Source: Obrimoposthia wandeli
Lineage: Eukaryota
NCBI GenBank assembly: GCA_977020255.1
Contig: CDROCS010001776.1
Coordinates: forward strand, 806,001-870,000
Direction of reading: 5' to 3'
Length of the DNA stretch: 64,000 nt
The position numbers and the translations under genes were made by a program. Within the stretch, counting starts at the first letter, position 1. The number at the start of each line of letters is the position of its first letter. Shown one piece after another: positions 16,377 through 43,559 of this stretch. Below the pieces are notes generated by a model. That model did no database searches. It saw nothing but the letters and a program-made list of their open reading frames with translations, and was not told the origin of the DNA.

Positions 16377-16975
16377 AGTAGGTAGAAGGATGGAGTCTAG
16401 ACCACTTGCTACCCCCTCCCTCCTTGTGCGCACACAATGTTAAAGGGTGTCACACCATAAGGGTGTCATACCATAAGGGTATATCTTGCCTCACCATAGG
16501 GGTGTCACACTATAATGGTGTCTTGTCACACCATAAGGGTATGGCTCAGAAAGGTTATGATAGAGGGAGGGGTCAAGTGATCTAGTCTCCATCCTTCTTA
16601 TGGTGGACCAACATATCCAATGGTTGTGGTCATCCATAGATGAAAGGGTCAGGAAGCGTTTTGACTTGAAGGTTTTAAGGTATAATTAAGGTCAACTATG
16701 GTTGTCCATTACATCTAAAGGGTCATGGGCGTCCATAAATCAAAGGGTTGGGCTAAAGACAAAATCAAGTTTTAAATGTCAAGGTTTGAATACATGGTTG
16801 GAATCATCTTTAGAAGGCAAATTCATCCATAAAGGTATGGTCGTTCATAGATGAAGGGTTAAAAAAGTTGGAATTTCATAGTTTTAAGTACATGGTTGTG
16901 TTTGTCAACATATTACGAGTTTAATCATGTATTAATTTTATGGTCGTTCACAAGGTAAGGGTTAGATTTGGCATA
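16377..16975 (+). repeat. Polinton terminal inverted repeat with internal tandem motifs
   Basis: AGTAGGTA...GAGTCTAGACC start; about 5 copies of GGGTGTCACACCATAA (16445-16540); about 7 copies of ATGGTYGTYCAT...AAGGGT (16620-16965); reverse-complement similarity to 43000-43559. Confidence 0.85.
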
Positions 16976-17231
16976 AATTAAAGAAACCTATAGTATTCAA
17001 TCAATTATTATATGTGAAAGTTTAGATTAAAGTTCACTCTTATCAGTTAAGGGACGTATTACGTAATAATATACACACTATTATATGTGAAAATTTAGAT
17101 AAAAGATATTTCCAGGCTTATGCATCTAAAGAATTATGATAAAATTTCTTTAAATAACTTAAATACTATATATTAAAATAAAAATAAAATAAGAAAAAAG
17201 TCAGAGAATAATACAAAATTAAACACATTTA

Positions 17232-18700
17232 TTATGTAATTTCATAATGTCCATAAGCGCGGCTTCTATTTTTCTCGATCCAATAGCGTTTGTCGTCTCA
17301 TGAGCTGAGAGCAGTCTTTTGTATTATGATTGTGTATAGTTGGTGATTTATTGTTCTAAACTTCTTTTGTGGTATAGTATATGCATTACCGTTTTCATAC
17401 ACGTCTAAATATGTTTGATGTACAACCGTTGATCCCTTAAGATTTACTCCTTTTGCTTTATTATTTTCAAAGTCATCTTCAAACTTAAGTGAATAACATT
17501 TACAAAGTAAGAAAATCCATTCTTTATACATTCTTCCTTCCGATTCATCTTTAAATAATCCTATTTTACTATTAAATTCATTAGAATATCATGAATCATT
17601 CACATTATAATTTGACGTATCTAATGCTCCATCTGCAATCATTTGAGGCAACAAATGATTTCTTAAATTAACATCTTTGCATTCTAAAAAGAATGAATCA
17701 GTATTTCCGGCAACTATATTAATTGAACAATTAAATAGTAATCTATAATTTTGTAAATCATGATACTGAAGAGTATACATTCGTAATTTGCTAAGGTCTA
17801 GCACCGCTTGGCCTATATAGTTTGGTCGATCGAGACAAATAAAGTATTTTCCTAATAAAACAGCTATTAAATTATCATGAATTTCAATTGTTCGATGAAA
17901 CATAGGTTTGCTAGTATATGTAATTAATTTGTAGAACTAGTGCAGATGCAAAGATTCAACCGTTTCTTAACATTTTCAACGATCTTTCCATACAAACTAA
18001 CAATTTTAAGTTTATAACAAATCTTTGTCACATTTATTCGTTGCTTGAAACCTCATTTCTGAATTATATTCTATATATTCTGCGAATATCTTTGCCTGAG
18101 AGAACTTTACTGTTCAATGAATAATTGTTACCACTGCTTCTAAACTAACATACATCTGCTATAGTCTCCAATGAATAACATAATTACTTTTTGGTGAACG
18201 TGTCATTAAATGTTTTTCAATTTTTTACCAGGAGGACATTTCTTTTCTGGAACTATAGGTAGATCGTCTAAAATATCATGAAGGCTTTCCGGTATTACCA
18301 AGTCTACCTCCATAACATAACCATATTCAATATGTTCCATGTCCACATTTTTCATTTCATGCAATATTTCGTTTAATTTTATATCATCAAGAATCCATTC
18401 CAAATCTTCTTTTGGTAAAGATTGATCAAAAGCCCATCCATATAAATTATTAACATCTATATATATATATATATATACCCGAAGAAATCATGTACATTTC
18501 AGGATCCTGCATCAGTTCAACCTTATGTTTTAACATTAGCACTTGCCCAGCTCAACCCTGGAATGCTTAAAGGTTGAGTGGTTCTAAACCATCTTTGCTA
18601 AGAGTTATTATTCCGATTGTTTGAAAGACATCATGTTATTCAAAGCTTTCTGAAAGCTTCGTCCACAAATTATAATATCATATCTTTAATTATATTGTTT
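17232..18700 (-). pseudogene. Polinton protein-primed family B DNA polymerase, C-terminal part, with stops, frameshifts and an internal deletion
   Basis: Motifs GLEP..PGLSW..MLKHKVELMQDPEMY; YIDVNNLYGWAFDQSLP (motif A); GYVMEVDLVIPESLHD; RPNYIGQAVLDLSKLRMY; AGNTDSFF (degenerate YxDTDS); FKDESEG; KAKGV; KTALSS*DDKRY..AYGHY. Confidence 0.95.
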
Positions 18701-19900: not shown

Positions 19901-20199
19901 TGGGTTAATGTAAAATCCCTTATATACTGCACACGTTTACACATGACCTTCGTGGTCCTAATACTAAATTCCCGTCTTAATTTCAACAATTTAATTTTAA
20001 TATGAATTCCATTTTAAATATAACCTTGCTTTCAAGGATTTTTTTTTTGTATAAAATCAATTAATTATTTAAAATTACTCAAAACCTAATCCTAACATAC
20101 ATATTCGATTATCAACTTAGCTTTTCTATTTATTATTCGACTTTCTAAAATAATTAAAATATCTTGTAAGAACACATAAAATTACTTATCGATTGTATG

Positions 20200-20860
20200 A
20201 ATTAATACAAGAATGAATGCAAGTGAATGCATGTATGAATGCAAGTGAATGCAAGTATGAATGCAAGTGAATGCAAGTATGAAAGCAAGTGAATGCAAAT
20301 ACAAGTAAGAGCCTTAGCAAGTGAATGTAATTGAAAAAAAAGAGTCTCGAGAGTTTGATTGAATGCAAGTGTAATTTAGACTATAAGTAAATTAAAATAG
20401 AGTTTTCGTATGAATAAAAGTTATATTAAGTGCCAGTTATATTAATAACAAGTAAGCAACTATAAGAAGCAGTGATACTGAATTATGTTAAATGTTAGAA
20501 CGACTAAGTTACAGCGAAATTAATAGAAAACAACACTAAGTTTGACGGTATGAATGAAAATTAGTAAAAATATTAATGTATTTGAATGATAGTTTGAATA
20601 AATGAGTGTTAGATTGAATGTAAATGAATGCAAGTATGAATGAATGCAGCTACAAGTACAAGTAAGAAAGAATATGATTGCAAGTACGAATTTCAAGTAC
20701 AAGTATGAAGGAAAATTAGTAAAAATATTAATGAATTTGAATGCTAGTTTGAATAATGAGAGTTAGAAGGAATGTAAATGAATGCAAGTATGAATGCAAG
20801 TGAATACGAATACAAGTAAGAGTTTTTGCAAGTGAATGTAAATCTGTAAGTGAGTACTAT
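20200..20860. repeat. TGAATGCAAG(TA) short tandem repeats and a ~153-bp duplication inside the Polinton arm
   Basis: Alternating 10/12-bp units at 20210-20310 and 20615-20835; AAAATTAGTAAAAATATTAATG block at ~20558 and ~20712; inverted homolog at ~41700-42000. Confidence 0.85.
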
Positions 20861-23258
20861 CTAATTATTAAATTAATACTATCAATCAATGAAGATGATG
20901 TACAAACTGATGAAAATTATAATAATTAAGATGTAAACTCTCATATTTTCACATATTTTACCTTCATGTTAAAGTTAACAGTTCATACATACTCACGTAA
21001 TTAAATAATTAAAATGTCTTATCTCGTTTAATAACATTCTTTAATTGAAATATTTTTTAAATAATTAGATAATTTTAAATTCTTTATTTTCTAAATAACT
21101 TGATTATAAAAATATATTCATAAATATAATTTGAAAGTATCATTATTCGTTTCTCTTTTTAACTATTCGAAATTATATTTATATATACAAATTTAGTAAA
21201 TTAAGTAAACAAACAATTTTATTCTCTATGTATCGAATATTGTAAAATTATTTTCAAAGACATGAAAATAATAGTAAACAAAGTGAAAGCTTTGTCAATA
21301 AATTATAATACCAAATCTTTAATCACATTGTTTAATATGCAAATAAAACAAATTATTCAAACATATTAGATTATCATCTTAATACCTCAATATATTATTC
21401 AACTTTATAAATATTTTTTAAAATTTATTTTATAAAATAGTTAAATTAAGAGTCTCAAGTGAATAAGAGTTAATAAGAGTCCGATATTATGGTTTAAAAT
21501 GATACTAAGTGATAACAAGAGTAAGTAAAAAAAGTTAGTAATATCAAATGTGTAAATGAACTAGAGTTATAGAGTATGACTGAAATTGTAACTGAGGACG
21601 TTAATTAGTATAATAATCTTCACACAGAATATATATATATTTAAATTACTTGATATTTATTTGCCATTGTCTTATTAATATAATATGAATATTCAAATTT
21701 ATTTCTTCAAAAATTCATTTTATATATTAAACAATATTTCTTTACCACATTATTGTGGTTTTTTATCAAGTGATTTTATCTTTAAACTATAAAAATATTT
21801 TAATTATCAAGTTAGTATCTGTACAGAAGTCAAACAGAAGTTACTATTAAGTTTATTCTTTCAAATATTAAAAGTTCTTTCGAATTATTTAATTTTGTTT
21901 ACTTTACATTCGAAAATTATTTGTAAACATAATAGTTTTGCATATATTCAGTTTAATATGTTGTAAGTTATTACTGCAATATTCCATTATATAAAAAGTA
22001 ATTGATAGTTTACTGCTGTTTACAAAAAAAATTACATATAACATCAAATATGTAAATTTCAGTTATGAATTTATCAACTATAAATATTTTTACACAGTTT
22101 AATGAGTTTTACGCCAAAAACTTAAAATATTTTAAATTTTAATCATAATTTCTATGATTTTGTCTTACATTTACTTCAATAGTTCAATATTTCTTTATTA
22201 CAGGTTATAATAGTTTACTATTATTTACACATTCTGGTAAATAATTTTGGTATTAATTGTTTTAAACTAGATTAACCTCGTATAACCTCATTCTTTATCT
22301 TAAACTAAAATACATTTAAATATTTTATGGTATTAATTTACTTTGCTCAAGTATTTTAAACATTAAAAGTTATATAAAAGTTTAATAAAAAGTTAATCAT
22401 TGAATACAAGTACACAAGTTCTAATATCATACAACATTCTCAACTGTATTCAATAGATTCTTTCTGAATATAAAATGTTGAATTTAAAAGTGTATAAAAT
22501 TATGAAAAATATCAACAACAAAAAAAACATTAGCCCTTTGTATATAATTATTTGTCAAATATTATGTTAGAATTGTATTTAATCTTTATTTTGTTTTAAT
22601 AATATTATATTTTAAAGCTATATGAAAATATTGTGTCACTCGCAATGCTCTAACAATAAATCAAAATCTGCAAACGGTTAAGTAAAGTTAATTTTAATTA
22701 CGATAAAAATTATTAACAAATATTTATTAAATTCTATCAAACTACCGTTATTATAATCATAGGCAGAATGTGTTAGTATTCTAATATACTATTCAAGAAA
22801 CTTGAATAACTGCAAATTAATTTAATATTCGAACTATGTTCATAAAATTATATAAAAAGTTTAACAACTCTTTATTATTATTTATTTTATTCTAAATATT
22901 ATTTAGAACTATTGTGTAGTTATTTAATTATTTAAATACATTATACATTGTTATTCGTTAGTGCTTATGTTAAAATATAGTAGCAAAATAAATGTCATTA
23001 CGAATAGATAATAAGGCAGATATAATACTTCTACGCTATTTTGAATATTTCGCAAAAAGTACCACAATGTTAATTACACATTATTTAAACAACAATATTT
23101 TAATAAATACCACGTGATTTTTTTATTTACAGATATTGTATATAGTATTAGCATTTAATAAATTTTAACCTTTTAATTAACTAATACCATAATTACTAAC
23201 TGATTTACTGATTTAAAAATGATAATACAATATTATCTTTACAAAAATGAAATAAGAC

Positions 23259-23978: not shown

Positions 23979-24477
23979 TTACGATTTGTATCTTAACGTT
24001 CTATAAAATCTTTCAACTACTGCAGCTTTATATTGAGAATATACCGAATAATGATTGATATTTTCTGTTTTGAATAATTTCTTAACATGTGAATTAAAAA
24101 ACTCTTTACCTCATCAGTTTGGATATTTACTGATCAACGATTAAAGATTATATTGCATGTAATAAATCAATTTTTGACACCAATTGCCTTGCAAAACGAC
24201 TAAATACATCAATACAAGTTAAAAATATACTTGAATCCTTCATTTACTGAAGAATAAGGAATCATTTCCATTAAATCCATCTGCCATAACGAATTAATAC
24301 CATTAGTTTATATGATCTAGTAGGGAAGTTACGTCTTAAAGGTTTATTCAGACTATATGATAATTCATTTCTTAACCATTTCCGTGTGTTTGTTTTTGAT
24401 TGTTTGACTATTATTGTACATTTTTATAACCCTGTATATCCGTCTGGATCTTCTGGATTGTTCCTAATCTGTTCCAT
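23979..24477 (-). pseudogene. Polinton retroviral-like (RVE) integrase, truncated and frameshifted
   Basis: NPEDPDGYTGL..KWLRNELSYSLNKPLRRNFPTR; WQMDLMEM; FKYI..CIDVFSRFA; IQTDE(G)KEFFNSHVKKLFKTENINHYSVYSQYKAAVVERFYRTLR (D, D and E catalytic segments recognisable). Confidence 0.93.
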
Positions 24478-24605
24478 TACAGCATGAAGAATTGAAATTT
24501 ATAAATAATTTAGACAACTTTCTATTGTTTATTCCCATTTTTATAAAAGTTAAATATATTTTAATCTGTTTATATGTTTGTATAAAACGAAAGTGATGCA
24601 TAGTT

Positions 24606-24935
24606 TTAACTTCTTGAACCTATAAGATCACCTATTAAAGAAGCTATAACGGGAAGTATGGCCATTATGAATCCACCGTTTTGATTGTAAATTATGTTTC
24701 TTTTTTTAATTTTACCGCGTGAATTTGCCAAATTTATTAATGAATTTTTATATTTTAAAATATAAGGATAAGATTTAATTTTACCATAAATTATTTTATT
24801 TAAAATTTTTATTAAATCATCAACTACATACATTGGAAATGATTTCAACATTTTCATTTTATTCGTTTTTGATACGTCAATTAATGTTTTAAAATAAGGT
24901 AAACTTTTTGCAAATTCAATATTATTACGATCATA
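24606..24935 (-). CDS. Small basic Polinton/adintovirus protein with a C-terminal amphipathic helix (pX/cupiennin-like)
   Basis: Open frame ...EFAKSLPYFKTLIDVSKTNKMKMLKSFPMYVVDDLIKILNKIIYGKIK...KKRNIIYNQNGGFIMAILPVIASLIGDLIGSRS*; located between ATPase and integrase; the original start codon is unclear. Confidence 0.65.
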   Translation of the reverse strand, partial: YDRNNIEFAKSLPYFKTLIDVSKTNKMKMLKSFPMYVVDDLIKILNKIIYGKIKSYPYILKYKNSLINLANSRGKIKKRNIIYNQNGGFIMAILPVIASLIGDLIGSRS

Positions 24936-25034
24936 TAATACAGTGTTTATTAATTTTTTAACTTCATCTTTATCTGTCTTTTACTATGTTTAAGAATACT
25001 CTTTTTAATATTCATTTTATTTTAAACTTTATTA

Positions 25035-25647
25035 TTATTTATTTGGTTTATAGACTGTAATACCATTACGGTTAAATATATCAGTAACAATTCTTAAATC
25101 ATCAGGACATGATTGAGTAAAATTTTAAAATAAATAACCATGAGGTAAAGATGTAGCATCATGAAACGCATCAATTAAATAACTCTTGTTATGAGGAAAT
25201 GCTTGACGAGCAATAAAATCTATCACTGTTTGATCTCTAGGATTTTTAAATAAAATTAAATAATGTACATTAAGATTACGAGTACGATGATTTCCTCCTT
25301 GATGAAATAAATTTTGTGTTATAAAAATTACAGTAACTTTTGTAAATAAATTATAAAAATCAGATTCTTTGTTAGCCTCTTGAAATAAGTCATCAATAAC
25401 AATTACATCACCTTTTAGTAGTCTTGTCATCCAATTTTCATAAAAAACCGTTAATATTCTTAATGTTTTTTATTTTATTAAATTCTTGGTTTGTTAAACC
25501 AGCTTCTCCATCACCACCTTGATGCCAATATATTTTATTAAATTTATTTTTAAACATTTTTGATTTTAATAATTTACAAACAAATACAGTTATTCCTGAA
25601 CCACTTGGACCTACTACTTCAAAAGTTGATTTGTTAATTAATAACAT
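25035..25647 (-). pseudogene. Polinton A32/FtsK-like packaging ATPase
   Basis: Walker A GPSGSGIT (Lys to Ile), Walker B VIVIDDL, VIFITQNLF, RTRNLNVHYLILFKNPRD, PHGYLF..NFTQSCPDDLRI; two frameshifts and an apparent short deletion after FTKV. Confidence 0.95.
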
Positions 25648-25725
25648 TATATATATAATATAAATATATCAGAATAAGTACATGTTTATAATAATAATAA
25701 CAACATTTTATTAAATATTTATTTA

Positions 25726-26050
25726 TTAAACATCAAAATATTCGGTCGCCGTATAAATCCTCCAGATGAGAGTAGTTTCATTCTTATTTATTTTATATCC
25801 GAGAATTTTTATTTTGAGCATCCAACTTCTTCCATCTTCTTGAATATCCGAAATCTTTGTTCCGGAACAATCATAAAATTTGTACTTATCACCGCACATA
25901 AATATACCCTCGTTCTCAAGTTCTACGTTAATCTTTAAATATTCGATGACATCATTGAGTTATTGAATGTCTTTGTTGTCAAAATCAGAGACTCGGTAAT
26001 GGTACGAAGTTTTCAATAATGTCACAGGCATAGTCATTGGATGAATCCAT
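25726..26050 (-). pseudogene. Decayed Polinton accessory ORF, possibly an OB-fold single-stranded-DNA-binding protein
   Basis: Reconstructed MDSSNDYACDIIENFVPLP..DFDNKDIQ*LNDVIEYLKINVELE...CGDKYKFYDCSGTKISDIQEDGRSWMLKIKILGYKIK.NETTLIWRIYTATEYFDV*; the fold assignment is pattern-based only. Confidence 0.35.
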
Positions 26051-26057
26051 GCAGATG

Positions 26058-26387
26058 TCAAGAAGAACATATCATACTCGTAATATGATTCGTATTTTTA
26101 TAATTTTTTTTAATGTATGTCATGATATCGTTACCTTGATTGTGAAAATTTAAATGTCTAAGACCTAAGATTACGACCTTTCCACATGTGAAAATATTCA
26201 CACAATGGATTGAAAATATTTAATCTTAAGCCTGGGAAAACCTCAGGGTCAAATGAACATTCCATAATTTAAACAGATTGATGCTTTGATCTAAATTTTC
26301 ACATACCGTAATTGATTGAATACTAATTATATTTATTCTTAAAGGGTAAGAAATATTTTTAATGTTGATCGTTAAGAAATCACAAAG
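26058..26387 (-). pseudogene. TATA-binding-protein (TBP)-like gene remnant, one TBP repeat, two frameshifts
   Basis: Reconstructed ISYPLRINIISIQSITVCENLDQSINLFKL/ECSFDPEVFPGLRLNIFNPLC/(V)NIFTCGKVVILGLR aligns by eye with the TBP C-terminal repeat ([28 protein letters not shown]...[36 protein letters not shown]). Confidence 0.85.
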
Positions 26388-26623: not shown

Positions 26624-26819
26624 TATATATATATCATCAACTACATAAATTGGAAATTATTTCAACATTTTCATTTAATTCGTTTTTGATACGTCAATTA
26701 ATGTTTTAAAATAAGGTAAACCTTTTGCAAATTCAATATTATTACGATCATATAATACAGTGTTTATTAATTTTTTAACTTCATCTTTATCTGTCCTTTT
26801 ACTATGTTTAAATATATTG

Positions 26820-27030
26820 ACTGTAACTCTTAATTCATCTGAACATTGTTGTGTAAAACCCTAAAAATAAGTATCCATGAGAATTCACTATTGCATCTTC
26901 AAATGCAACAATCAAATATTGTTTATTACACTGAAACTTTTGCCTCGTCACAAAATCAATGACTGTCTGATGTCTCGGATTTTTAAATATTACTATGCAA
27001 TGTAGAACGAGATATTTTGAAGTACGCACA
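26820..27030 (-). pseudogene. Second, diverged fragment of the Polinton packaging ATPase (C-terminal part)
   Basis: HCIVIFKNPRHQTVIDFVTRQKFQCNKQYLIVAFEDAIVNSHGYLF parallels HYLILFKNPRDQTVIDFIARQAFPHNKSYLIDAFHDATSLPHGYLF at 25125-25270. Confidence 0.9.
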
Positions 27031-27652: not shown

Positions 27653-30600
27653 TCAATTGGTCTCGCCAGATGCAGTCACCGAGGTCTCAACCTTGCTCTC
27701 CAGCGTCAAGGTCACCGGACCATCGTTCACCAAAGTAACATCCATCATGGCCCCAAATTGTCCATCTGCAGGTAGGTAGATGGTGAGAATAAACTTACAT
27801 GCTTGAACCAGGAAAACCCAGGTTTCTACCGTTAGACCAAGTATAAATCCCTCGTGCAAACCTTTGAAATAGTGGTATTTGACAGACTTAAACATCGGGG
27901 TATTTACTACACTGGTGAAGCGTGAATCATTGAATATAAATTACCATGTTTAACATCTTAGTTAGACCTTCTTTAGGGCAAAGTAAATATTGGAGTTTAA
28001 GAAAGTTGTAGGTGATACAAACAATATATTTTTTAATATTTCCACCGACCGAATTTTAGCAGATTTAAACTATATCTAAAAATACAGTCAAAGTCGTGTC
28101 GGGTGGACCCCTATTTATAAATACAATAAATTCACCCGCTTAATGAAACCGTTTTGTCTTGGGACGGAGTTAAGAGTAAATTCCCGCGTCCTTGCTTAAT
28201 AATTGGAGCTGTGTCGATTTCACTTATGTACATACCCGTTCAAAACTTGCTGTATTAACCTACAGTGCAGATAGCGCCTGTTCACGGAGCTAATAACATC
28301 AATTAAACGTCTTAAGTCACAGATACGGCAGGTGAAACAGACAAACGTCTGGGAGGGCAGGAAGGAACACAGGAATAGACAAAGACACTGGGTGGCATGC
28401 CACTGGTGTCTCGGAGTTATCAACATTATTCGCCACGTGTGTATCTGACGTTAAGCAGAGAGTTGTCGATGAATTTTAATAGGTGTGAAAAGGAAGTGGT
28501 CGGCAGGATAAAACCTGCGCCAAGAAAACGGAACTGCTAGAACTTTATAGAGCTCGTGATCAAACAACTCAAGAGGCTTCCCTCAAGGCTATTGTGTAAT
28601 TAAGGTGGGATTCGTGTGAAGGAAAAGAGCGACGGTTCATCGAAAGGAAAGCGCCAGCATCAAGGGAAGAATCTGCAGATGCTCTGTACCATTGGTTAAA
28701 GTTCTTGCACATACAAAATCAACATCATTGCTCAAGCTACTGGCCACGATTTCAAAGCGTCCAACAATTGATTTTTGTAGCGATGAAGATTAATAAGTAC
28801 TCTCTTGATCATTCTCGAAATTCGGTCCTTCGATAATTAAATCCCAAATACCCCAGACCCACAATTTATAAAGCGGGGTCCACTGTATTCATAGTTATTT
28901 TGCTGTATAAAAATCAGCAAGAATAAAACTACTTAAAAAATGAAGTACCCGTTTAATGAAGAGTTCCTGTGACATCAAGTTCGATATATAATAAAACGCG
29001 TACCATCAAGTTTCAGTTCGAGAATATATCAAACCACATTTGGAAACGCCTTTGAAAATTCGTCATGATTAGATTCGGACATGGTCAATTATAAATCCCA
29101 TTTTCAAGCTAGTAACTCACCTTTGACCAGTTCGGATTTGTATTCTGTTCTAAGCTTGTCCAGGAAATTGTCGTAGTATTGTCTCGATAAATCGGGACCC
29201 ATTGATTTGTGAAAGTCCAGTTTGTTGCCTTTCAGAACCGAGTGAAGGGTGAACTGAAACACGATACGAATAATTAACATTCTTAGAAGAAGCAAAAATG
29301 TGATTGAAAATACGCCGTTTAAATATAAAGTTTTTAAATAGACAAGTTTTTAATCAAATTTGAACGACGAATTATCCATCCAAAAAAGAAAATTTACCCT
29401 TGTAGTTGCAATGCTCCTCCGCATATTCAACACAATCATACTCAAAATTCGACATGATCATGCTTCCAAAAATACTACAACACATTTACAACCGATGGGA
29501 AAATAAAAAATTTAAGTTATTTTATCATAAGCTATTAGTTCAAGAATAGATTTAGGCTTATTTAGACAGATGAAGAGTATCATGTAGATGAAAAAAACAA
29601 TTTTCTTGTTGGACCTTTCTTGGAGAAGAGTAAATCCAAAGATAATCAAAAATTGTTTTTGGAAAACTGGTATTATAAAATCAAAAGAAATCATCATCGT
29701 AGAAGAATTTAATTCGATTTTCAATAGTTTGTATCCAACCAAAAAATGTATAAATGATCTAGAAACTGTTGAGGCAGAAACTGGTGACAACATAACCAAC
29801 AACATATTTCTTCGGATAAAACTAGAAACTTGTGATGACGTTATTGTTGAAACTGGAGTTCCTGTTAAAGATATGTACAATACAAGTGAAGTTATTGTCG
29901 ATTAATTTAATCTAAAAAAAGTTTCAGTAAGATTTCATCCAGATCAAAGAAACCATTTGACCGAAATGAAAGAAAATATCGAAGAATTGCGTATAAAAAC
30001 ATGAGACAAACTACATTGAATGATTTTGTTGAAAATAATTGAATGCACATGTGTCAATTTTCAGAAAAAAACCGTAATCCGAAAAAGCCCGCCATCCAAA
30101 ACTAATTTTTTACATGTTCGGATTATCGGGGGTTGACTGTAGTTTCAACAGTTTCAGGCAACCCTTAATTTTTTTAATGAATAACTGTTTTTCTTATACA
30201 CAAAGCTCCACAAGCTGTTATTTCATAATAATACATAAAATAGTTTAAATGTTACATTTCCAAGGGTTTCATAAAATCATGTGTAGTGAATTCATGTTTT
30301 GTAGTTACTTAATTACCTTAAGTAATTGGTTGCATAATTATTCAATAAAATTGTGTTTTAATAAAATTGTATAATTACGCAACAAACAAACCGTTTTATT
30401 TTATTTCGTTTTTAATTAATTTTGAAAACAAAATGGAGTAAAAGAGTTTGTTTTAATTTTTATATTTATGTTAATTTATTAATTTTGAATTACATGATGA
30501 ATCTCTCAAATACAACATGGTCAGCTGCAACAACGACTTCTCAAGCTAATCCAGCAGCAAGGTCTATTTCTGCCAATGAACAATATTACAATTATTACAT

Positions 30601-32394
30601 GATGAATCTTTCAAATCCAACATGGTCAGCTGCAACAACGACTTCTCAAGCTAATCCAGCAGCAAGGTCTATTTCTGCCAATGAACAATATTACAATTAT
30701 TACATGATGAATCTTTCAAATCCAACATGGTCAGCTGCAACAACGACTTCTCAAGCTAATCCACCAGCAAGGTCTATTTCTGCCTATGAACAATATTACA
30801 ATTATTACATGATGAATCTTTCAAATCCAACATGGTCAGCTGCAACAACGACTTCTCAAGCTAATCCAGCAGCAAGGTCTATTTCTGCCAATGAACAATA
30901 TTACAATTATTACCAAACTATATCTCCAGCAGTTACCACTATTTCAACTACTACTCAAACCCAAACTCAAACTGTGGAATTTAATCAAGACATAATATCA
31001 TATATAATTAAATATATGCTTACACTACATCATGTATTTAAAAACAAATGAAAATTGAAAATGAATTTACTTAATGAAGTCAATTTTATGTTTAAAACGT
31101 TAAGAAGACGTTTAAACCCTCAAATTTTACTGATGTGAGTTCATTTTTAAGAAACACGTAATAGGTCATTAATATTTAATTTCAAAATTAAACAAACAAA
31201 TAATATCTAAATATCTTTATAATACCACATTGGCCCAGAAAACTTTTGCTTACTACGTGGTTTACGGATAAATAAGTAAATTTAAATATTTTACAAATGT
31301 ATGATTTCTACTTTCAAATAGTTTTCTTGTGACATAATATAATTGAGATGAAATGTCCACAAATAATCACCAAAATTACCTGACTCACGCAGAGAATCTC
31401 CAGATTCAAGTCCTTGACACTGAGATGCCACCGCTTGTCAGATTTAGTGTCAGGGAAAATTCGCAGATTAAGGATCTTCCTGACCCTTGAATGAAGAAAT
31501 TGTCAGCCAACGAAAATAATCAGAGGTGAGCTGTGAAGCGTAAAGAAACCACGAAGAGCCTCACATGTATTCAGTATCTTTGTCCACATCGTCTGCGGCA
31601 ATGCCCACCAGTACCATGACTCCTCGTCCAATGGAGCTGATCACATCACCATTCACTGTGAAGAATTAATGCAGATTCTTGATGTTAGAATAACAAGAAA
31701 AACTTTCTTAAATGTTTTAAGAGTACGATTTATTTCATTATTCTTGCCGTACATGTTATGTAATCATATGCGGTTGTTAATTCATTAAGACTTCGACTAA
31801 CAAAGCACTGCAAAATCACATTTGTGTGTTCTTAATCATTATTTGTTATGTTAATCTTTCCCAGAGATTAAATTTTCCTCTCAGAATTCAAAGCTATGAT
31901 AAACTTTATACATTGGTAGATAGCGATACTTTTTAGACAAAACATATTAGGGACTTTCGAAGAAATGTATACGACAATTTTAGAATTTTGTTAAAATCAT
32001 AATTTCAATGTAACTTTCATTTGCAATATCTCTCAAAGTCCATATTGTATATAGTTCAAACTTGACATGTCTAAAACTAGTTCTCTTCCAATTATTAAAA
32101 TGTATAAATGCGTAGCAGAAATAGAAATTTTTGTATTTTGTTGCAGAAATGTCAAAATTCTTATTCATGTGATCCTACAGTTGAAATATCTATGATCATT
32201 CTGAACACATTTAATTGACATTTGACATCAACAACTTCCTTATTATTCAATTTTGTATTAGAAAATATGGCAAATAAATATTAGCTTAAAAATTAAAATA
32301 AAAAAAGAATAAGTTAAAACTGTAATTGATAATGAAGAAAATATATACAACCTGACACAGAAGCTGATTTAACCCTTTGAAGCACAATCTTCAT
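27653..32394 (-). CDS. DTD1: D-aminoacyl-tRNA deacylase 1 (D-tyrosyl-tRNA deacylase), 5 exons, 161 aa
   Basis: Exons 32394-32352, 31655-31565, 31485-31380, 29253-29121, 27765-27653; all GT-AG and phase-consistent (486 nt). Protein [33 protein letters not shown]...VRKILNLRIFPD...EILCVSQFTL...GNKLDFHKSM...DGQFGAMMDVTLVNDGPVT carries the SQFTL and Gly-cisPro (NDGPVT) DTD motifs. Confidence 0.97.
28103..28885 (+). mobile_element. Internally deleted pogo/Tigger-like DNA transposon in DTD1 intron 4
   Basis: Inverted ends GTGGACCCCTATTTATAAAT / ATTTATAAAGCGGGGTCCACTG-TA; internal CENP-B-type HTH remnants ESADALYHWL and AQATGHDFKASNN*FL*R. Confidence 0.75.
29300..30139 (+). mobile_element. 3' half of a pogo/Tigger-like transposon in DTD1 intron 3
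   Basis: DDE_1-type remnants QKRKFTLVV.NAPPH, NTTTHLQPM, LDLSWRRVNPKIIKNCFWKTG; right TIR TTCGGATTATCGGGGGTTGACTG followed by TA. Confidence 0.8.
30489..30913 (+). repeat. 105-bp tandem repeat x4 within a 209-codon open frame (30422-31051), antisense in DTD1 intron 3
   Basis: Units start at 30489, 30594, 30699 and 30804 and are nearly identical; the translated unit is YMMNLSNPTWSAATTTSQANPAARSISANEQYYNY. Confidence 0.95.
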
Positions 32395-36058: not shown

Positions 36059-36164
36059 TAAGTTGATGATTATCATCAATATGTTCCAATAAACTGATTT
36101 TATCAATAAAGTATTTTAATAATAAAACATCCTCTTTGTTGTCCAATATTATATTCTTCATTAA

Positions 36165-38287
36165 CAGTTCGTCGCTGTTTGGGGTGCATTTTGCACCCAG
36201 GCACATTTCAAGTGTTATAAACTCGAATTAATCAAACTTTGAGAATTTCTGCTTTATGACTTTTTAAGTTTGACCATTCTACACATCATATCGGAAAGTC
36301 AAACATTTTGTATACTATGAGGAAGCTCAGACATATTTTTATATGTACTGTCGTTTGGTGTGCATTTGCACCCCAAACAAATATAATGCATTCTTGTTTT
36401 TCAATGCAGAAATCTGACTCTTTAAATTTATTTTAGGTACTGAATATTACTATAGTACTCAACCAATCAATAAGCAATAGTTGATTCAACAAGAATGTAG
36501 ATAGGTATATATTGGCAACTCTCATGAGCATTCGAATTAGTTGCATTATTATTTTCAGATTGCATTCAATTATATTTCATTCTCTGCATTTGCAATATGT
36601 TGCGTCAACTACCACGGAGACTAGCTCGTAATGATGCCAACAGACTGTTGTTTGGCCAAGACATTGATGATGTGAGCATTCATTGGACTTCATTTTCTTG
36701 CAGACGCCCTAAAGGGACATCATCGAGTACTGGAGGAAATGTGGTCGGATCGTGATAGTCATGCTCTTTTTAGGGCCACCATGAGCTGCCAGCGCTTCAA
36801 ACAACTGAAGCAAGCATTACGCTTTGACGATCCCATAAGGAGGGATAGGGAGGATCCCCTGGCTCCCATTCGTACAATTGTGCAATATGTGAATGACAGT
36901 CTTGTCTATGCTTATTCGCCAGGCCCATTCATTACTGTTGATGAGCAACTGGTAGAATTCCATGGCAGAGTTCGTTTTAGACGTTATATACCTACAAAAC
37001 CAGGCAAATTTGGTATAGAAATCTACTGGTCCGTGGATGCAGACAACAGTTTCCCACTGCGGTGTTTAGTATACATTGGTGAGAAGACACTTTCGAGACA
37101 AGAGAAAGAAGACTCCCCATCAATTCCGGAAGCCGTCGTCTGGAACATTGCTCGTCCCTTGTTGAACGAAGGAAGGAACATCACAGGAGATAATTACTTC
37201 TCATCTCTTCACCTATGCCAGAGATTGTTGGAACGGCAGACTACATATGTCGGCACAATGCGACAGAATAAGCGAGAGAATCCACCATTAGCAAAGACAA
37301 CAACTGGACGACACATGGGTGATAGCATTCACTACTACACTGATGATGCCACTCTTTGCTCCTTTTGGGACAAGGGCAAAAACCCAGTTTTACTAATTTC
37401 AACCCAACATAAAGCCCAACAAAATCACCCTGATAGAAAACCAGAAATCGTAATATTCTATAACAGTACTATAACAGTATGGAAACCCTTAATAAATTGA
37501 ATAGGACATTCTCATCGAAGCGCAAGTGTCGCCGGTGGCCTTACTCGATCTTCTTTTCGTTAGCAGATAATGTGTGCTATGCTGCCCTGTTGTTATGGAA
37601 TTCGTCCGAGGTCAACAATGATTCACATTATGCATTCAAAAGAGAGCTGGCATATGAATTGTGTACACCACTGATTCGACAAAGATCCACTATCCCCAAC
37701 CTCCGTAAGACCATCAAAACGGCAATTGAACGTCTTGGTTTACAACCTCATATGGTGCCACTCCCTCGTCAACAAGCAGTTCGCACTCAGGGAAGGTGCT
37801 ACATGTGCCCGAGAGGTCCAGACCGCAAACAACGGAAAATGTGCTTCGAGTGTCATCAATTCATTTGTCCAATACATGGACAAACGCGTAATGTGTGCAA
37901 TAATTGCATTGTTTAGCTTTATAAACTTATACCTAACTGTAACTGAATAAACTATTAGACTCTCTGTGCCAGAGTACACTTCAAGTATATTATGTTCAAT
38001 TCATCATACTAATAAAGTCTCTGTAACTTTTTCTATTTTCTTAAAATACGTGTCCTATACCAATAAAGTAATGTTTTTCTATTTCTATAATGAATGGTTC
38101 TATAATAATTAGTTTAGCTTTTATGCTTTCTAAGAAACGTTGTGTAGGTAGTAGCTAATAGAGTACTTACTACCAGAACAGAACCTATTGCTTCTTTATT
38201 TGCAATGAATTCCAATGGAATAGGCTGGGGTGCAAAATGCACCCCAAACGTCGTTTACCTAGTAAAAAAGTGAACAGCGAAGAACTT
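36165..38287 (+). mobile_element. Near-full-length piggyBac transposon
   Basis: TTAA on both sides; TIR CAGTTCGTCGCTGTT / reverse complement AAGTTCTTCGCTGTT (13/15); subterminal palindromes GGGGTGCATTTTGCACCC at about 36181, 36358 and 38227. Confidence 0.95.
36597..37916 (+). pseudogene. piggyBac transposase (DDE_Tnp_1_7 plus C-terminal Cys-rich domain) with an N-terminal deletion and a frameshift
   Basis: AFIGLHFLA..LEEMWS, ATMSCQRF..LRFDD, ITVDEQLVEFHGR..YIPTKPGKFGI, ITGDNYFSS, YVGTMRQNKRE, IFYNST/METLNK, RRWP, RCYMCPRGPDRKQRKMCFECHQFICPIH..VCNNC. Confidence 0.95.
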
Positions 38288-39399: not shown

Positions 39400-42300
39400 T
39401 AAAAGAAAATTTGTTTTACTAAATCAATAAAATTAATTAATCCAGAAAGAGTATTTTATAAGCTAAATATTTTAGTTTCATTTCATTAACTAGAAATATG
39501 GAAAACAAGAGAATGGTAATAGAAGAACTTGTGAATAGCAAGCATTACTCTTTGGCAGATAAGTTCTATCTTGCAGAGGGTTTAGGGCTCCAGAAAGCTC
39601 TTTAGGTAGAATAGATTCCAGGCTTCATTGGTAGGTCGCCGAATGACTAATACTCTACCTAATTAGAACTTGCAATGAGACCTTCACACACACACATATG
39701 AGAACGACCCTAAAGTTCCCACTAGGACTACATATGAAAGGGATGGCAGAGGAATGGGGAAAAACTCTAACTTTTTGTTCAATTATTTTAATAAAACAAT
39801 AATTTAAAACGTTTTATACAAAATTATTTTTAAACTTAAGCAACTTACTTTTAAAATTTGTTAAAGTATAAACATTTAATTTTTATTTACTTACAAAAAT
39901 AAGTATTATATAATTTTCAAAATTTATTTCAAAATTATTATTTAATTATAAAAGTAAATATTATAAAAATTTCTAAATTTAAATAAAAATATTTAAATAC
40001 TTATAAATATGAGTATTGTATATTTATTAAATTTAAATTAGTAAATTTCATATTACTGTATTTTGTAAGTAGTAGCATCTTTCACTTAATATTATTTAAA
40101 AACATGTTAAAAGTGAATATCTTTTATACTTTGAAGGCAAGTAGGGGAGCTAGATGGCAGAGTTTAATGCGCTTGACTTAAGATTCAGTGGAGATATCCC
40201 ACTTCTGGCAAAAAAAAATTTTCTTATCAGAAACAAAAATAAAATTAAAACTATATATGTATTTCAAACGACAAACTTGATTATAATAAATGTTAATGAC
40301 TTTCAATTAATTCATATACAAAAATATCTTTAATATGAGCAAAACACTCTTTTATAATCTTAAACATTATGTATGATGGGTTGTTTGCGTTTTTCACTTC
40401 TATATATTGTGTTATGATTCTTATGTTAAAAGAGAAATCATTCAACTTTTAATTGAGAAAACAAATTTATAATTCATTAACACAAAATAATATTAAAAAT
40501 GTACTTTAATTGAAGTCAAAAAATATAATATACTCGATATTAAACAAAGTTCATCTTGTGTAAATTAATTAAAACTAATTTTCTTACAACTAATGTATAA
40601 ATTTTCAATTTATTGTAAACGACAGTAAACTATCAATTACTTTTTATGTAATAGAATTTTACAGTAATAACTTACAACATATTAAACTAAATGTTTACAA
40701 GTAATTTTCAAATGTCTTTTAAACTAAAACAAAATTAAATAACACGAAAGAATTTTAATATTTGAAAGATTAAACTTAATAGTGACTTATATTTGAGATT
40801 TATATTATATGCAGTCGGTGCGATACAGCTACTAACTTTGTAATTAAAATATTTTTATAGTTTAAAGAAAAAAGAATTTGATAAAAACTACAATAATGTG
40901 GTAAAGAAATATTGTTTAATATATCAAATGATTTTTTATAGAAATAGATTGAATATTCATATTATATTAATAAGACAATGGTAAAAATATCAAGTAATTT
41001 AAATATGTATTTTTTGTGAAGATTATTTTTATATTAATTAACGTCCTCAGTTATACTTACAGTCATACTCTATAACTCTAATTCATTTACACATTCAATA
41101 TAACTAACTTTTCTTTACTTACTCTTGTTATCACTTAGTATCATTTTAAACCATACTCTCTAACTCTTATTAACTCTTATTCAATTGAGACTCTTAATTT
41201 TATAAAATAAATGTTAAAAAAATATTTAGAAAGTTGAATAATATATTGAGGTATAAAAATGATAATCTAATATGTGTGAACAATTTGTTTTATTTGCATA
41301 TTAAACAATCTGATTAAAGATTTGGTATTATAATTTATTGATAAAGCGTTAAGCTAAATTTGTATATATATATAAATATATTTTCGAATATTATAAAAAG
41401 AAACGAATAATGATAATTTTGAAATTATATTTATGAATATATTTTTATAACCATGTTTTTTTTAAATAAAGAATTTAAATTTATATAACTATTTTAAAAT
41501 ATTTCATTTAAGGAATGTTATCAAACGAGTTAAGAAATTTTAATTATTTAATTGCGTGAGTGTGTATGACCTGTTAACTTTAGAGTAAGTATATAGAAGT
41601 AAAATATGTGAAAATAAAATGTGAAATTTCACATCTTAATTATTATAATTTGCATCAGGTTGTTACATTATCTTCATTGATTAATAGTATTAATTTAATG
41701 ATTAACTAGTACATACTTGCAGTTTTTTCTTACTTGTATTCGCATACACTTGCATTCATTTAAATTCATTTTAACTCTCATTTATTCAAACTAGCAGTAA
41801 AAATTCATTAATACTCTTACTAATTTTCATTCATACTTGTACTTGACATTCGTATATGCAATCGTATTCTTTCTTACTTGTACTTGTAGCTGCATTCATC
41901 CATACTTAAAATTGAATTCATTGTTAATTGTACTTGCATACATTGTTAATTGTACTTGATTTTATTTACATTTACACTTGTATTAAATCATACAATCGAT
42001 AATTAATTTTATTTGTTATCACAAGAGATTTTTAATATTTTAGAAAGTCGAATAATAAATAAAAATAGTACTATGTTGATAATCGAATATGTACATAAAT
42101 TGATTTATTTACTTATAAAACAATATACCTAAAGATTTGGTATTCTAATTTGTAAACAAAACTTTCAGTAACTTTGAATAGCATGTGTTTGCAAATTAAT
42201 TTTCAATATTCGATTCAAATAAAAAATATGTATAAAATTTATTTTTGCAGTTTTAAAAATAAAATGTTTTAAAGATATTTTTGAATATATAAAGTGGAAA

Positions 42301-43559
42301 TTGGATAATATTAATATTCAAATTATTTAAATAAAGCCATAAATAAAATTCAAATTTATCAGATTAAAAAAATTCAATTAAGGAATGTTACCAATGAGAA
42401 AAAGAATTTTTAATAATTTATGTGAAATACGTGAATAAATTTTTGATCATTGTAGCATATGAAAATAAAAATATGTGAAAAAAAGCTTAAAATTTCACAT
42501 CTTAATTAATATAATTGTAAATAGATTATTAATGTTGTTCATTGATTAATAGCATTAATTTGATAAATACAAATTAATAATAACAATTTTTTAATATTTT
42601 CATCATTATTTTTAAGCATAAATTACAAGTATAATATAAATAAATTTTAGAGTTAAAATGAATAAGTTTGTGTTTGAATATCCATTTGTTTAAATACTTC
42701 AAAAGTGATTATATTTTTGCAATTACCAGTATTTTAATTTTTTCACCAGGATCCTTTAATTTTCTTAAACAAATTTGTTTAATTACATTAATAAAAAATT
42801 TGCGTAAATTTAAATATTTATTTTTAAAAACATATAAGTAAACTACTTTGATAATATTTAACATTTTTCCTTAATATTTATATTAAATAATGTTACTTTA
42901 ATATTTTATTTTAAAAAATCCCTTAAATTAAAATTTAACAAAAACAAACAAAATAATTTGGCTCAAATTTAAATATATTTTTAAATTACAAGTATTTTTT
43001 ACCAGGACCCCTAACTCATGCATGAACATAAGGGTATGGTTGAACTCAATTTCGATAGAAAAATACAACTATGTAATAAAATTATCAAGTTTGTTCAAAA
43101 TCTGACCCTTAACTTGTGGACGACCATAAAATATTTACATGATTAAACGGACAATCACAACCATGTAATCACATCTTTGAAATTTCATCTTTTATCCCTT
43201 CATTTATGGTCAACCATACCTTTATGGATGAATTTGCCTTCTATAAATGATTCCAACTATGTACTAAATTCTTGATTTTGTCTTTAGCCTGACATTTCAT
43301 TTATGGACGACCACAACTCTTTAGGTGTGTTGGTGAACTATAGACGGTCACAACCATACCCTCAAGCCTTCAAGTCATAACTGAGGCCAACCCTTTAATA
43401 TATGGACAACCGCAACCCCTTTGGTATATTGGCCTATCATACCTTAAAACGACATAACCTTTCTGACTGACCCTTATGGTGTTACACCCTTAACCATTAT
43501 GTGCGCACACAGGACCCCCTCCCCCCAAAAGGGGTCTAGACTTCATTAAAGTACCTACT
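39400..43559 (-). mobile_element. Inverted, non-coding Polinton arm related to 16377-22900, ending in a TIR
   Basis: 43000-43559 is the reverse complement of 16377-16975 (ends GGTCTAGACTTCATTAAAGTACCTACT). About 39800-42100 is the diverged reverse complement of about 20095-22900 (e.g. 41101-41345 vs 21295-21545). About 42125-42570 is a diverged direct repeat of about 41310-41710. No polymerase segment is present. Confidence 0.88.
40149..40210 (+). pseudogene. tRNA-Leu(TAA)-derived pseudogene lacking the T-arm, followed by an A-run
   Basis: GCTAGATGGCAGAGTTTAATGCGCTTGAC-TTAAGA-TTCAGTGGAGATAT...CCCACTTCTGGCA follows the eukaryotic tRNA-Leu(UAA) pattern (GATGGCCGAGTGGTTAAGGCG..GACTTAAGATCCA...CCCACTCCTGG); the GTTCGA T-loop is missing. 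Confidence 0.7.

Follow-up and report, generated by a model that had tools for sequence, protein, structure and literature searches.

A compact TATA-binding protein gene carried by a Polinton lineage and a candidate promoter word before its packaging and capsid genes

Does a lineage of Polintons carry a TATA-binding protein (TBP) of its own, and what might such a protein do there? The question is raised by a short stretch of minus-strand DNA, positions 26058-26387, in a window of 64,000 nucleotides from Obrimoposthia wandeli (GCA_977020255.1, contig CDROCS010001776.1, positions 806,001 to 870,000), which a sequence-only reading had taken for a TBP-like gene inside a Polinton/Maverick cluster. 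That identification holds. A profile of short, element-type TBPs (here called mini-TBPs), for which only 32 metagenome proteins were used, matches three stop-to-stop segments without any joining of frames. The segments lie in two frames, cover successive parts of the profile and reach 40.0, 27.4 and 25.5 bits, where the best of 20 locally shuffled windows reaches 10.3 bits. A canonical-TBP profile finds the same segments at E 0.0018-0.084. Against Pfam PF00352, unbroken copies from elsewhere pass the cut-off, and the single unjoined frame of the window, at E 0.047, falls below it. The remnant proper, the C-terminal lobe, spans 26086..26363 on the minus strand (88% DNA identity to a natural unbroken copy; tblastn E 5e-37). 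Two frame breaks, near 26256 and 26198, lie in the domain, as had been proposed, and a third that had escaped notice lies near 26106, in the tail. Because homology to unbroken copies ends at 26363, approximately the first 52 codons, corresponding to the N-lobe, are missing. The remnant is intronless and shares its strand with the ATPase and integrase remnants, an arrangement that the tblastn layout confirms. The window copy is a broken, 5′-truncated and dead gene copy in the remnant of a Polinton/Maverick.

Its surviving neighbours also lie on the minus strand. ORF2 (25729..26052; tblastn 88%) is the remnant of a predicted OB-fold, single-stranded DNA-binding protein resembling T7 gp2.5 and Enc34. 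Beyond it are an A32-type packaging ATPase remnant (25038..25635; tblastn, with PF04665 on unbroken relatives), a small basic protein labelled a putative virion core protein from its composition and position (24609..24980; tblastn 92%; a Pfam search of the window gave no match to it) and the 5′ remnant of an rve integrase (23991..24522; tblastn, with rve on unbroken relatives). The window copy retains a short word, YATAAAC, before its ATPase gene (25684..25690, a putative late promoter that intact copies have at the corresponding place, 53 nt upstream of the ATG) and before its core gene (25046..25052, within the 3′ end of the ATPase gene and 37 nt before the ATG in intact copies); a further word stands upstream of the integrase region (24568..24574). 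Where the TBP 5′ end and pPolB would be expected, pieces of the core and ATPase genes are present in duplicate (26630..27020, minus strand). The 3′ part of a same-family pPolB is found at a distance, together with a TIR that begins AGTAG (16377..18633, minus strand), in an orientation relative to the TBP cluster opposite to the native one; the pPolB remnant itself (17238-18633), which has a TIR of its own next to it, is either displaced or a separate piece, and this displaced TIR is the only one that the window copy has. The co-orientation of TBP with the pPolB remnant, noted earlier, does not reflect the native layout, pPolB being divergent from TBP in intact elements of the window's family.

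Several features of the window may be recorded here. Long inverted repeats flank the TBP cluster (20098-22029 and 40609-42569; also 16599-16977 and 43090-43441), and a TIR-like piece is present at 43.1-43.4 kb; we speculate that an inversion between such repeats could account for the flipped pPolB remnant. Within the TIR of the window's family, a stretch of 57-59 bp is 81-85% identical to nucleotides 215-273 of the TBP coding sequence (window 16991-17068 and 26284-26363; also in the TIRs of intact copies in the L190, L196-L200 region), and it may represent a cis-site common to both or a piece that was captured. The window also contains a piggyBac-like transposon with short inverted ends and a DDE_Tnp_1_7 frame (36156-38270), a D-Tyr-tRNA deacylase fragment (27653-27940) and a 105-bp tandem array within an open frame (30384-31013).

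A single dead copy cannot say whether the gene belongs to the element. To avoid circularity, we examined loci anchored on pPolB or capsid genes and not on TBP. In all seven pPolB-anchored loci, taken from 91 pPolB rows among those with the longest frames, an unbroken TBP frame lies divergent from pPolB within TIRs approximately 12 kb apart; nine of the ten loci picked from 99 capsid (MCP) rows have a TBP gene within 10 kb, one of these nine in a neighbouring deleted copy. The elements concerned pass the tests for a Polinton. Intact ones have AG...CT TIR ends and a 6-bp TSD (perfect in C981 and C3109, 5/6 matching in C1435, C2685 and C1526). Unbroken relatives supply pPolB (PF03175, E 1.6e-11) and rve integrase (PF00665, E 2e-6 and 1.8e-11), the A32 ATPase exceeds the PF04665 cut-off, and an adenain-like protease is weakly matched (PF00770, E 0.006-0.011). 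The capsid protein, which gives no direct Pfam match, reaches an Atlas score of 0.98 to clusters in which 15-30% of members carry PF21738. At least four TBP-bearing families with differing layouts reside in the source genome, and several layouts occur in metagenomes. Polinton-type neighbours accompany the element-type TBP at 15 of 20 metagenome loci, with a hallmark gene at 8 of the 20; the five loci that have none are contigs under 1.7 kb. Among canonical-TBP loci, 2 of 60 have a single Polinton-type neighbour match.

A quick tree of 122 rows separates 104 element-type TBPs from 18 sequences of host, cellular or large-virus origin (SH-aLRT 100). The rows entered were those selected with the family's own profile, and the tree supports this split without reaching to the deeper origin. 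Two NCLDV-like TBPs fall with the canonical group, apart from the mini-TBPs. The copies neither nest with host TBP nor lie in random context, as processed pseudogenes would. Between families, dN/dS of the mini-TBP is 0.13-0.21, with dS near saturation. Among eight young copies of the window's family the TBP variants are nearly neutral (8 synonymous vs 19 non-synonymous), with dN/dS 0.97, frameshifted tails included, vs 0.11 for the ATPase in three copies. Decay after insertion would give this pattern, yet it lends no support to current function. Taken together, these observations support the earlier suggestion that a Polinton lineage carries its own TBP-like factor, as a regular gene and not as a host processed pseudogene; the checks by locus structure, which found unbroken TBP frames inside TIR-bounded elements, and by phylogeny both came out in its favour.

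What kind of TBP is it? A PF00352 search of the source genome returned 19,768 first-look candidates; 150 were scored, and all 150 were over the cut-off. Ten of these belong to four host-type loci and 140 are shorter matches, 20 of which were read. Unbroken copies are approximately 143-154 amino acids long from the conserved start, with PF00352 E values of 1.3e-17, 6e-12 and 2.6e-9, over the curated cut-off. Elsewhere, relatives made up 43 of the 50 candidates of one search, and 58 cluster representatives reached E 1e-30 or better. A structural model derived from 35 sequences (pLDDT 94.4) has helices only at residues 82-86 and 130-143, and none in residues 1-81, so that the N-lobe helices are missing from it. 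All 144 model residues align to residues 66-238 of yeast TBP, with Z 13.1-13.7 and rmsd 2.5 (the best non-TBP match has Z 6.4). Since the alignment covers the full TBP core, the model describes a two-lobed TBP approximately 29 residues short, a saddle in one chain of about 145 amino acids. The remark that only one TBP repeat is visible is accurate for the window copy and does not extend to unbroken copies, which hold both lobes; of the two explanations that had been offered, deletion of the first repeat is the correct one, and a half-TBP acting as a homodimer is rejected.

The intact protein belongs to the TBP family (PF00352) and departs from canonical TBP in two features. It shares with cellular and archaeal TBPs (PDB 7egb_P, 2z8u, 1ytb) the whole saddle as modelled, three intercalating phenylalanines and an acidic E-x-E stirrup, at approximately 25% identity. 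F39, F98 and F114 are invariant in 35 of 35 aligned mini-TBPs. The fourth intercalating phenylalanine is the first departure: internal symmetry would make it position 23, where K, S or R is found, and hhalign puts it close to position 27, which is variable; under either of these ambiguous registers there is no conserved aromatic residue. The second is helix H2 of the N-lobe, lost from the model with the other N-lobe helices. The stirrup has E or D at both positions in 35 of 35 sequences, and its pattern is matched by 104 of 126 element-type rows. According to the available portions of Ravarani et al. (2020; PMC7221094), contact with TFIIB is made by two C-lobe glutamates, and contact with Mot1, TAF1, Brf1 and TFIIA largely by a basic patch on helix H2. 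The mini-TBP has therefore kept the TFIIB contact residues, and the H2 surface is absent, as far as the model shows. Canonical Leu, Val, Asn and Thr positions are occupied by Asn112, Arg45, Ser69 and Met47/Leu122; we take these positions to face DNA, as in TBP-DNA structures, and the DNA face would be more polar (Leu to Asn, Val to Arg, Asn to Ser).

The two inner phenylalanines are 75 residues apart in the mini-TBP vs 90-92 in canonical rows. A Polinton-like contig (L119:9995-10501) encodes a TBP of 169 amino acids, long enough for N-lobe helices; it uses YATAAAC too, in 16 copies, all on the coding strand. Across the family the spacing runs from approximately 72 to 91, which suggests stepwise shrinking.

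The gene adjoining the mini-TBP, ORF2, had been considered as a TBP cofactor. A model of an unbroken relative (pLDDT 90.9) has its best matches, of middling Z, in 5odk (Z 7.8) and 1je5 (Z 7.7). Because this OB fold is closest to phage SSBs, we rejected the cofactor idea, and ORF2 is probably a replication gene. A homologue search with ORF2 gave no matches, and the Atlas gave weak leads only.

An indication of what the mini-TBP might do comes from the DNA in front of the genes that accompany it. In an unbiased 7-mer count over 19 metagenome loci TATAAAC ranks first, and YATAAAC is present in 28 of 70 upstream windows vs 1.7 in shuffled ones; the reverse strand has it in 1 of 70 and control loci in 3 of 432. 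Counted by gene class, with one representative per lineage, the word precedes the ATPase in 7/7, MCP in 7/7, an exonuclease-like gene (EXO) in 8/8 and the core gene in 5/6. It precedes TBP in 1/20, pPolB in 0/4, the SSB-like gene in 2/7, integrase in 1/5, the minor capsid gene in 1/6 and PV in 1/6, these totals including four mis-called rows (B TBP, L119 TBP, C pPolB and A pPolB); the TBP count is 1/18 when its two are left out. Eight of the 20 TBP rows have an ordinary TATA box in place of YATAAAC. In the four strong classes the word is found in 26 of 27 windows (1.0 expected), 23 of the 26 at 29-53 nt upstream of the ATG. The final C is required: YATAAA[AGT] occurs in 1/27, where 6.3 would be expected. 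The word is located between genes or in any of the three phases of the upstream frame, often near the end of the upstream gene, and it also stands between divergent genes (L108). Its spacing to the downstream ATG has sd 12.7 (n 26) vs 27.6 (n 16) to the upstream stop.

Gene and word also go together across clades. The source genome also holds a complete Polinton of another clade in which an HMM search finds no TBP gene and the word stands before 0 of 12 ORFs; a partial copy of that clade has the word before 0 of 8. The resulting 0/20, vs 32/97 windows in TBP-bearing elements (p 0.0016), derives from a single clade in two copies, so word and gene may co-occur through descent alone. This TBP-less clade (L229:8278 to L231:3328, G000:C2184) is approximately 15 kb long with a 406-bp TIR; its integrase carries a fused PLA2-like domain, a pX-like protein and a PF21738 capsid are also encoded, and its genes start behind A/T-runs. 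An IMG/VR scan with the TBP alignment returned two ordinary two-lobed TBPs only, on large-virus-like contigs, and scans with the capsid, ATPase, pPolB and the motif pattern returned no matches; the control is consequently confined to the source genome.

Since capsid and packaging genes stand behind a shared TATA-like word, we suspect that the mini-TBP switches them on through the host machinery. Our preferred reading, to which we assign a probability of roughly 0.6, is that the intact mini-TBP is a self-encoded late factor that binds YATAAAC and brings in host Pol II by way of TFIIB. Ordinary TATA boxes would serve host TBP for the early transcription of the TBP, pPolB and SSB-like genes. The mini-TBP would then read YATAAAC through its re-tooled, more polar DNA face, and would be expected to prefer that word to TATAAAAG or scrambled DNA. 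Its acidic stirrup would recruit host TFIIB and thereby Pol II to the capsid, packaging, core and exonuclease-like genes, and loss of helix H2 would free it from control by Mot1/BTAF1, TAF1, Brf1 and TFIIA. The N-lobe, which is changed in the mini-TBP, is the half of TBP that reads the 3′ end of a TATA box, where the diagnostic C falls. The motif thus offers indirect support for a role at the element's own promoters, as the sequence-only reading had supposed; the Pol III alternative that it also raised looks less probable, since Brf1 uses an N-lobe helix that the model does not have. Some results count against a late factor: the integrase, minor capsid and PV genes mostly lack the motif, and the SSB-like gene has it in two of seven cases. 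In the passages available to us, Ravarani et al. (PMC7221094) also argue that recruitment of host TFIIB is not, in general, a property of viral TBPs.

Could a host factor read YATAAAC instead? Host TBP, a divergent host TBP paralogue or a forkhead protein might do so, leaving the mini-TBP to act as a repressor or decoy, either by sequestering TFIIB or by blocking TATA boxes of the host or of early genes. The forkhead consensus is RYAAAYA, which YATAAAC fits in 26 of 27 windows when read as ATAAACA. The favoured forkhead word, GTAAACA, occurs in 0/27, as does the reverse orientation, and the tight spacing to the ATG is that of a core promoter, not of an enhancer. Additional TBP-like genes exist in the host, the mini-TBP is much altered on its DNA face, and a plant TBP has been solved on a C(-25) TATA variant (1qn3, as described in the available part of its record), all of which would suit a host reader; that the same-host clade without a TBP gene also lacks YATAAAC is harder to square with one, and we regard this account as rather unlikely.

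An improbable alternative is that the mini-TBP binds AT-rich termini or other DNA in replication or packaging, and that YATAAAC has another meaning, for example in polyadenylation or as a by-product of coding. The position of the TBP gene among replication genes (pPolB, SSB-like), the resemblance between part of that gene and the TIR, and the frequent proximity of the word to the end of an upstream gene would fit. Against this reading, the word lies between genes and in all three phases of the upstream frame, keeps closer register with the ATG than with the preceding stop and appears between divergent genes, and the TFIIB stirrup is retained in 35 of 35 sequences. That the copies are processed pseudogenes of host TBP or functionless passengers is very hard to credit and already largely refuted: the nearly neutral variation in young copies and the dead window copy would agree with it, whereas the separate clade, the fixed place in at least four families and several metagenome layouts, the low dN/dS between families and the intact modelled fold speak against it.

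If the mini-TBP is a late factor, its closest functional parallel may be found in herpesviruses. As described in the accessible part of PMC12529657, KSHV ORF24 mimics TBP on late-gene TATTWAA promoters with host Pol II; it is a large protein that acts in a six-factor complex and binds Pol II directly. The beta- and gammaherpesvirus mimics, so far as that part describes them, likewise combine a TBP fold encoded by the virus with a short TATA variant at late genes; the use of host Pol II is demonstrated there and presumed here. The mini-TBP differs from ORF24 in its 145 amino acids, its retained stirrup, its word and its SSB-like neighbour. Genes for a herpesvirus-type multi-subunit activator were not recognised among the element's ORFs, of which several small ones are without assignment. 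By analogy, the mini-TBP may work like the herpesvirus late system without being a member of it. NCLDVs usually encode an RNA polymerase. Those with a TBP often carry their own TFIIB as well, according to the available sections of PMC7221094, and their TBP-like proteins (that paper and BFVD matches) resemble the mini-TBP in being dsDNA-virus homologues with a diverged N-lobe regulatory surface. Neither TFIIB nor RNA polymerase was seen among the ORFs of the TBP-bearing elements, which are 12-18 kb long.

Polintons and Mavericks were reportedly the subject of studies by Kapitonov and Jurka in 2006 and by Pritham in 2007. With Polintons, Mavericks and adintoviruses as characterized in the passages available from Starrett et al. 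(2021; PMC8502044), the present elements share TIRs starting AG, a 6-bp TSD, pPolB, rve integrase, A32 ATPase, adenain-like protease and jelly-roll capsid; the mini-TBP, the SSB-like gene and the conserved late-gene motif are additional. The legend to Fig. 5 of the same paper includes the label TBP without naming the labelled element, and the passages available carry no text on it. This label was the only literature found on TBP in Polintons, in a search outside which most subscription journals fall; the one supplement of PMC8502044 that was searched has no match to TBP or TATA. The statement that TBP is not a described Polinton gene was nearly right, that label being the exception.

A more far-reaching proposal, for which we put the chances slightly above even, is that a widespread lineage of these animal Polintons runs a true early/late programme by means of one mini-TBP, among the smallest two-lobed TBPs and without the host's control surface, and a private YATAAAC promoter, an orthogonal pair independent of herpesviruses that serves a regulated virion-producing phase. 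It has long been asked if, and under what circumstances in time, Polintons produce virions at all. A late-promoter word with a candidate activator makes virion production testable, and an early/late programme, if true, would be evidence for a regulated phase of it. The mini-TBP would be a natural minimal TBP in which recruitment of TFIIB is separated from the Mot1/TAF1/Brf1 surface and, if specific, mini-TBP and YATAAAC would form a compact orthogonal promoter-factor pair. Motif and TBP gene together mark a large Polinton clade.

The genome itself deserves a few remarks. Its first-look candidates (24,443 for pPolB and 30,238 for capsid in addition to those for TBP) should not be read as copy numbers, yet they indicate a Polinton load that is very large, nested and in part young. 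BIR (IAP) and dual-specificity phosphatase genes accompany TBP in some of the element families (L025, L027, L030, L239-L240). Several copies of a host BRF1-like gene are present (L223-L226), one beside a pPolB of the TBP-less clade, and the host TFIIB gene is divided among exons. The host loci L001/L002 (C238) and L004/L005 (C60, C1092) comprise two TBP genes that lie head-to-head approximately 1.2 kb apart and two TBP paralogues without introns, which are two-lobed, divergent and placed on a long branch.
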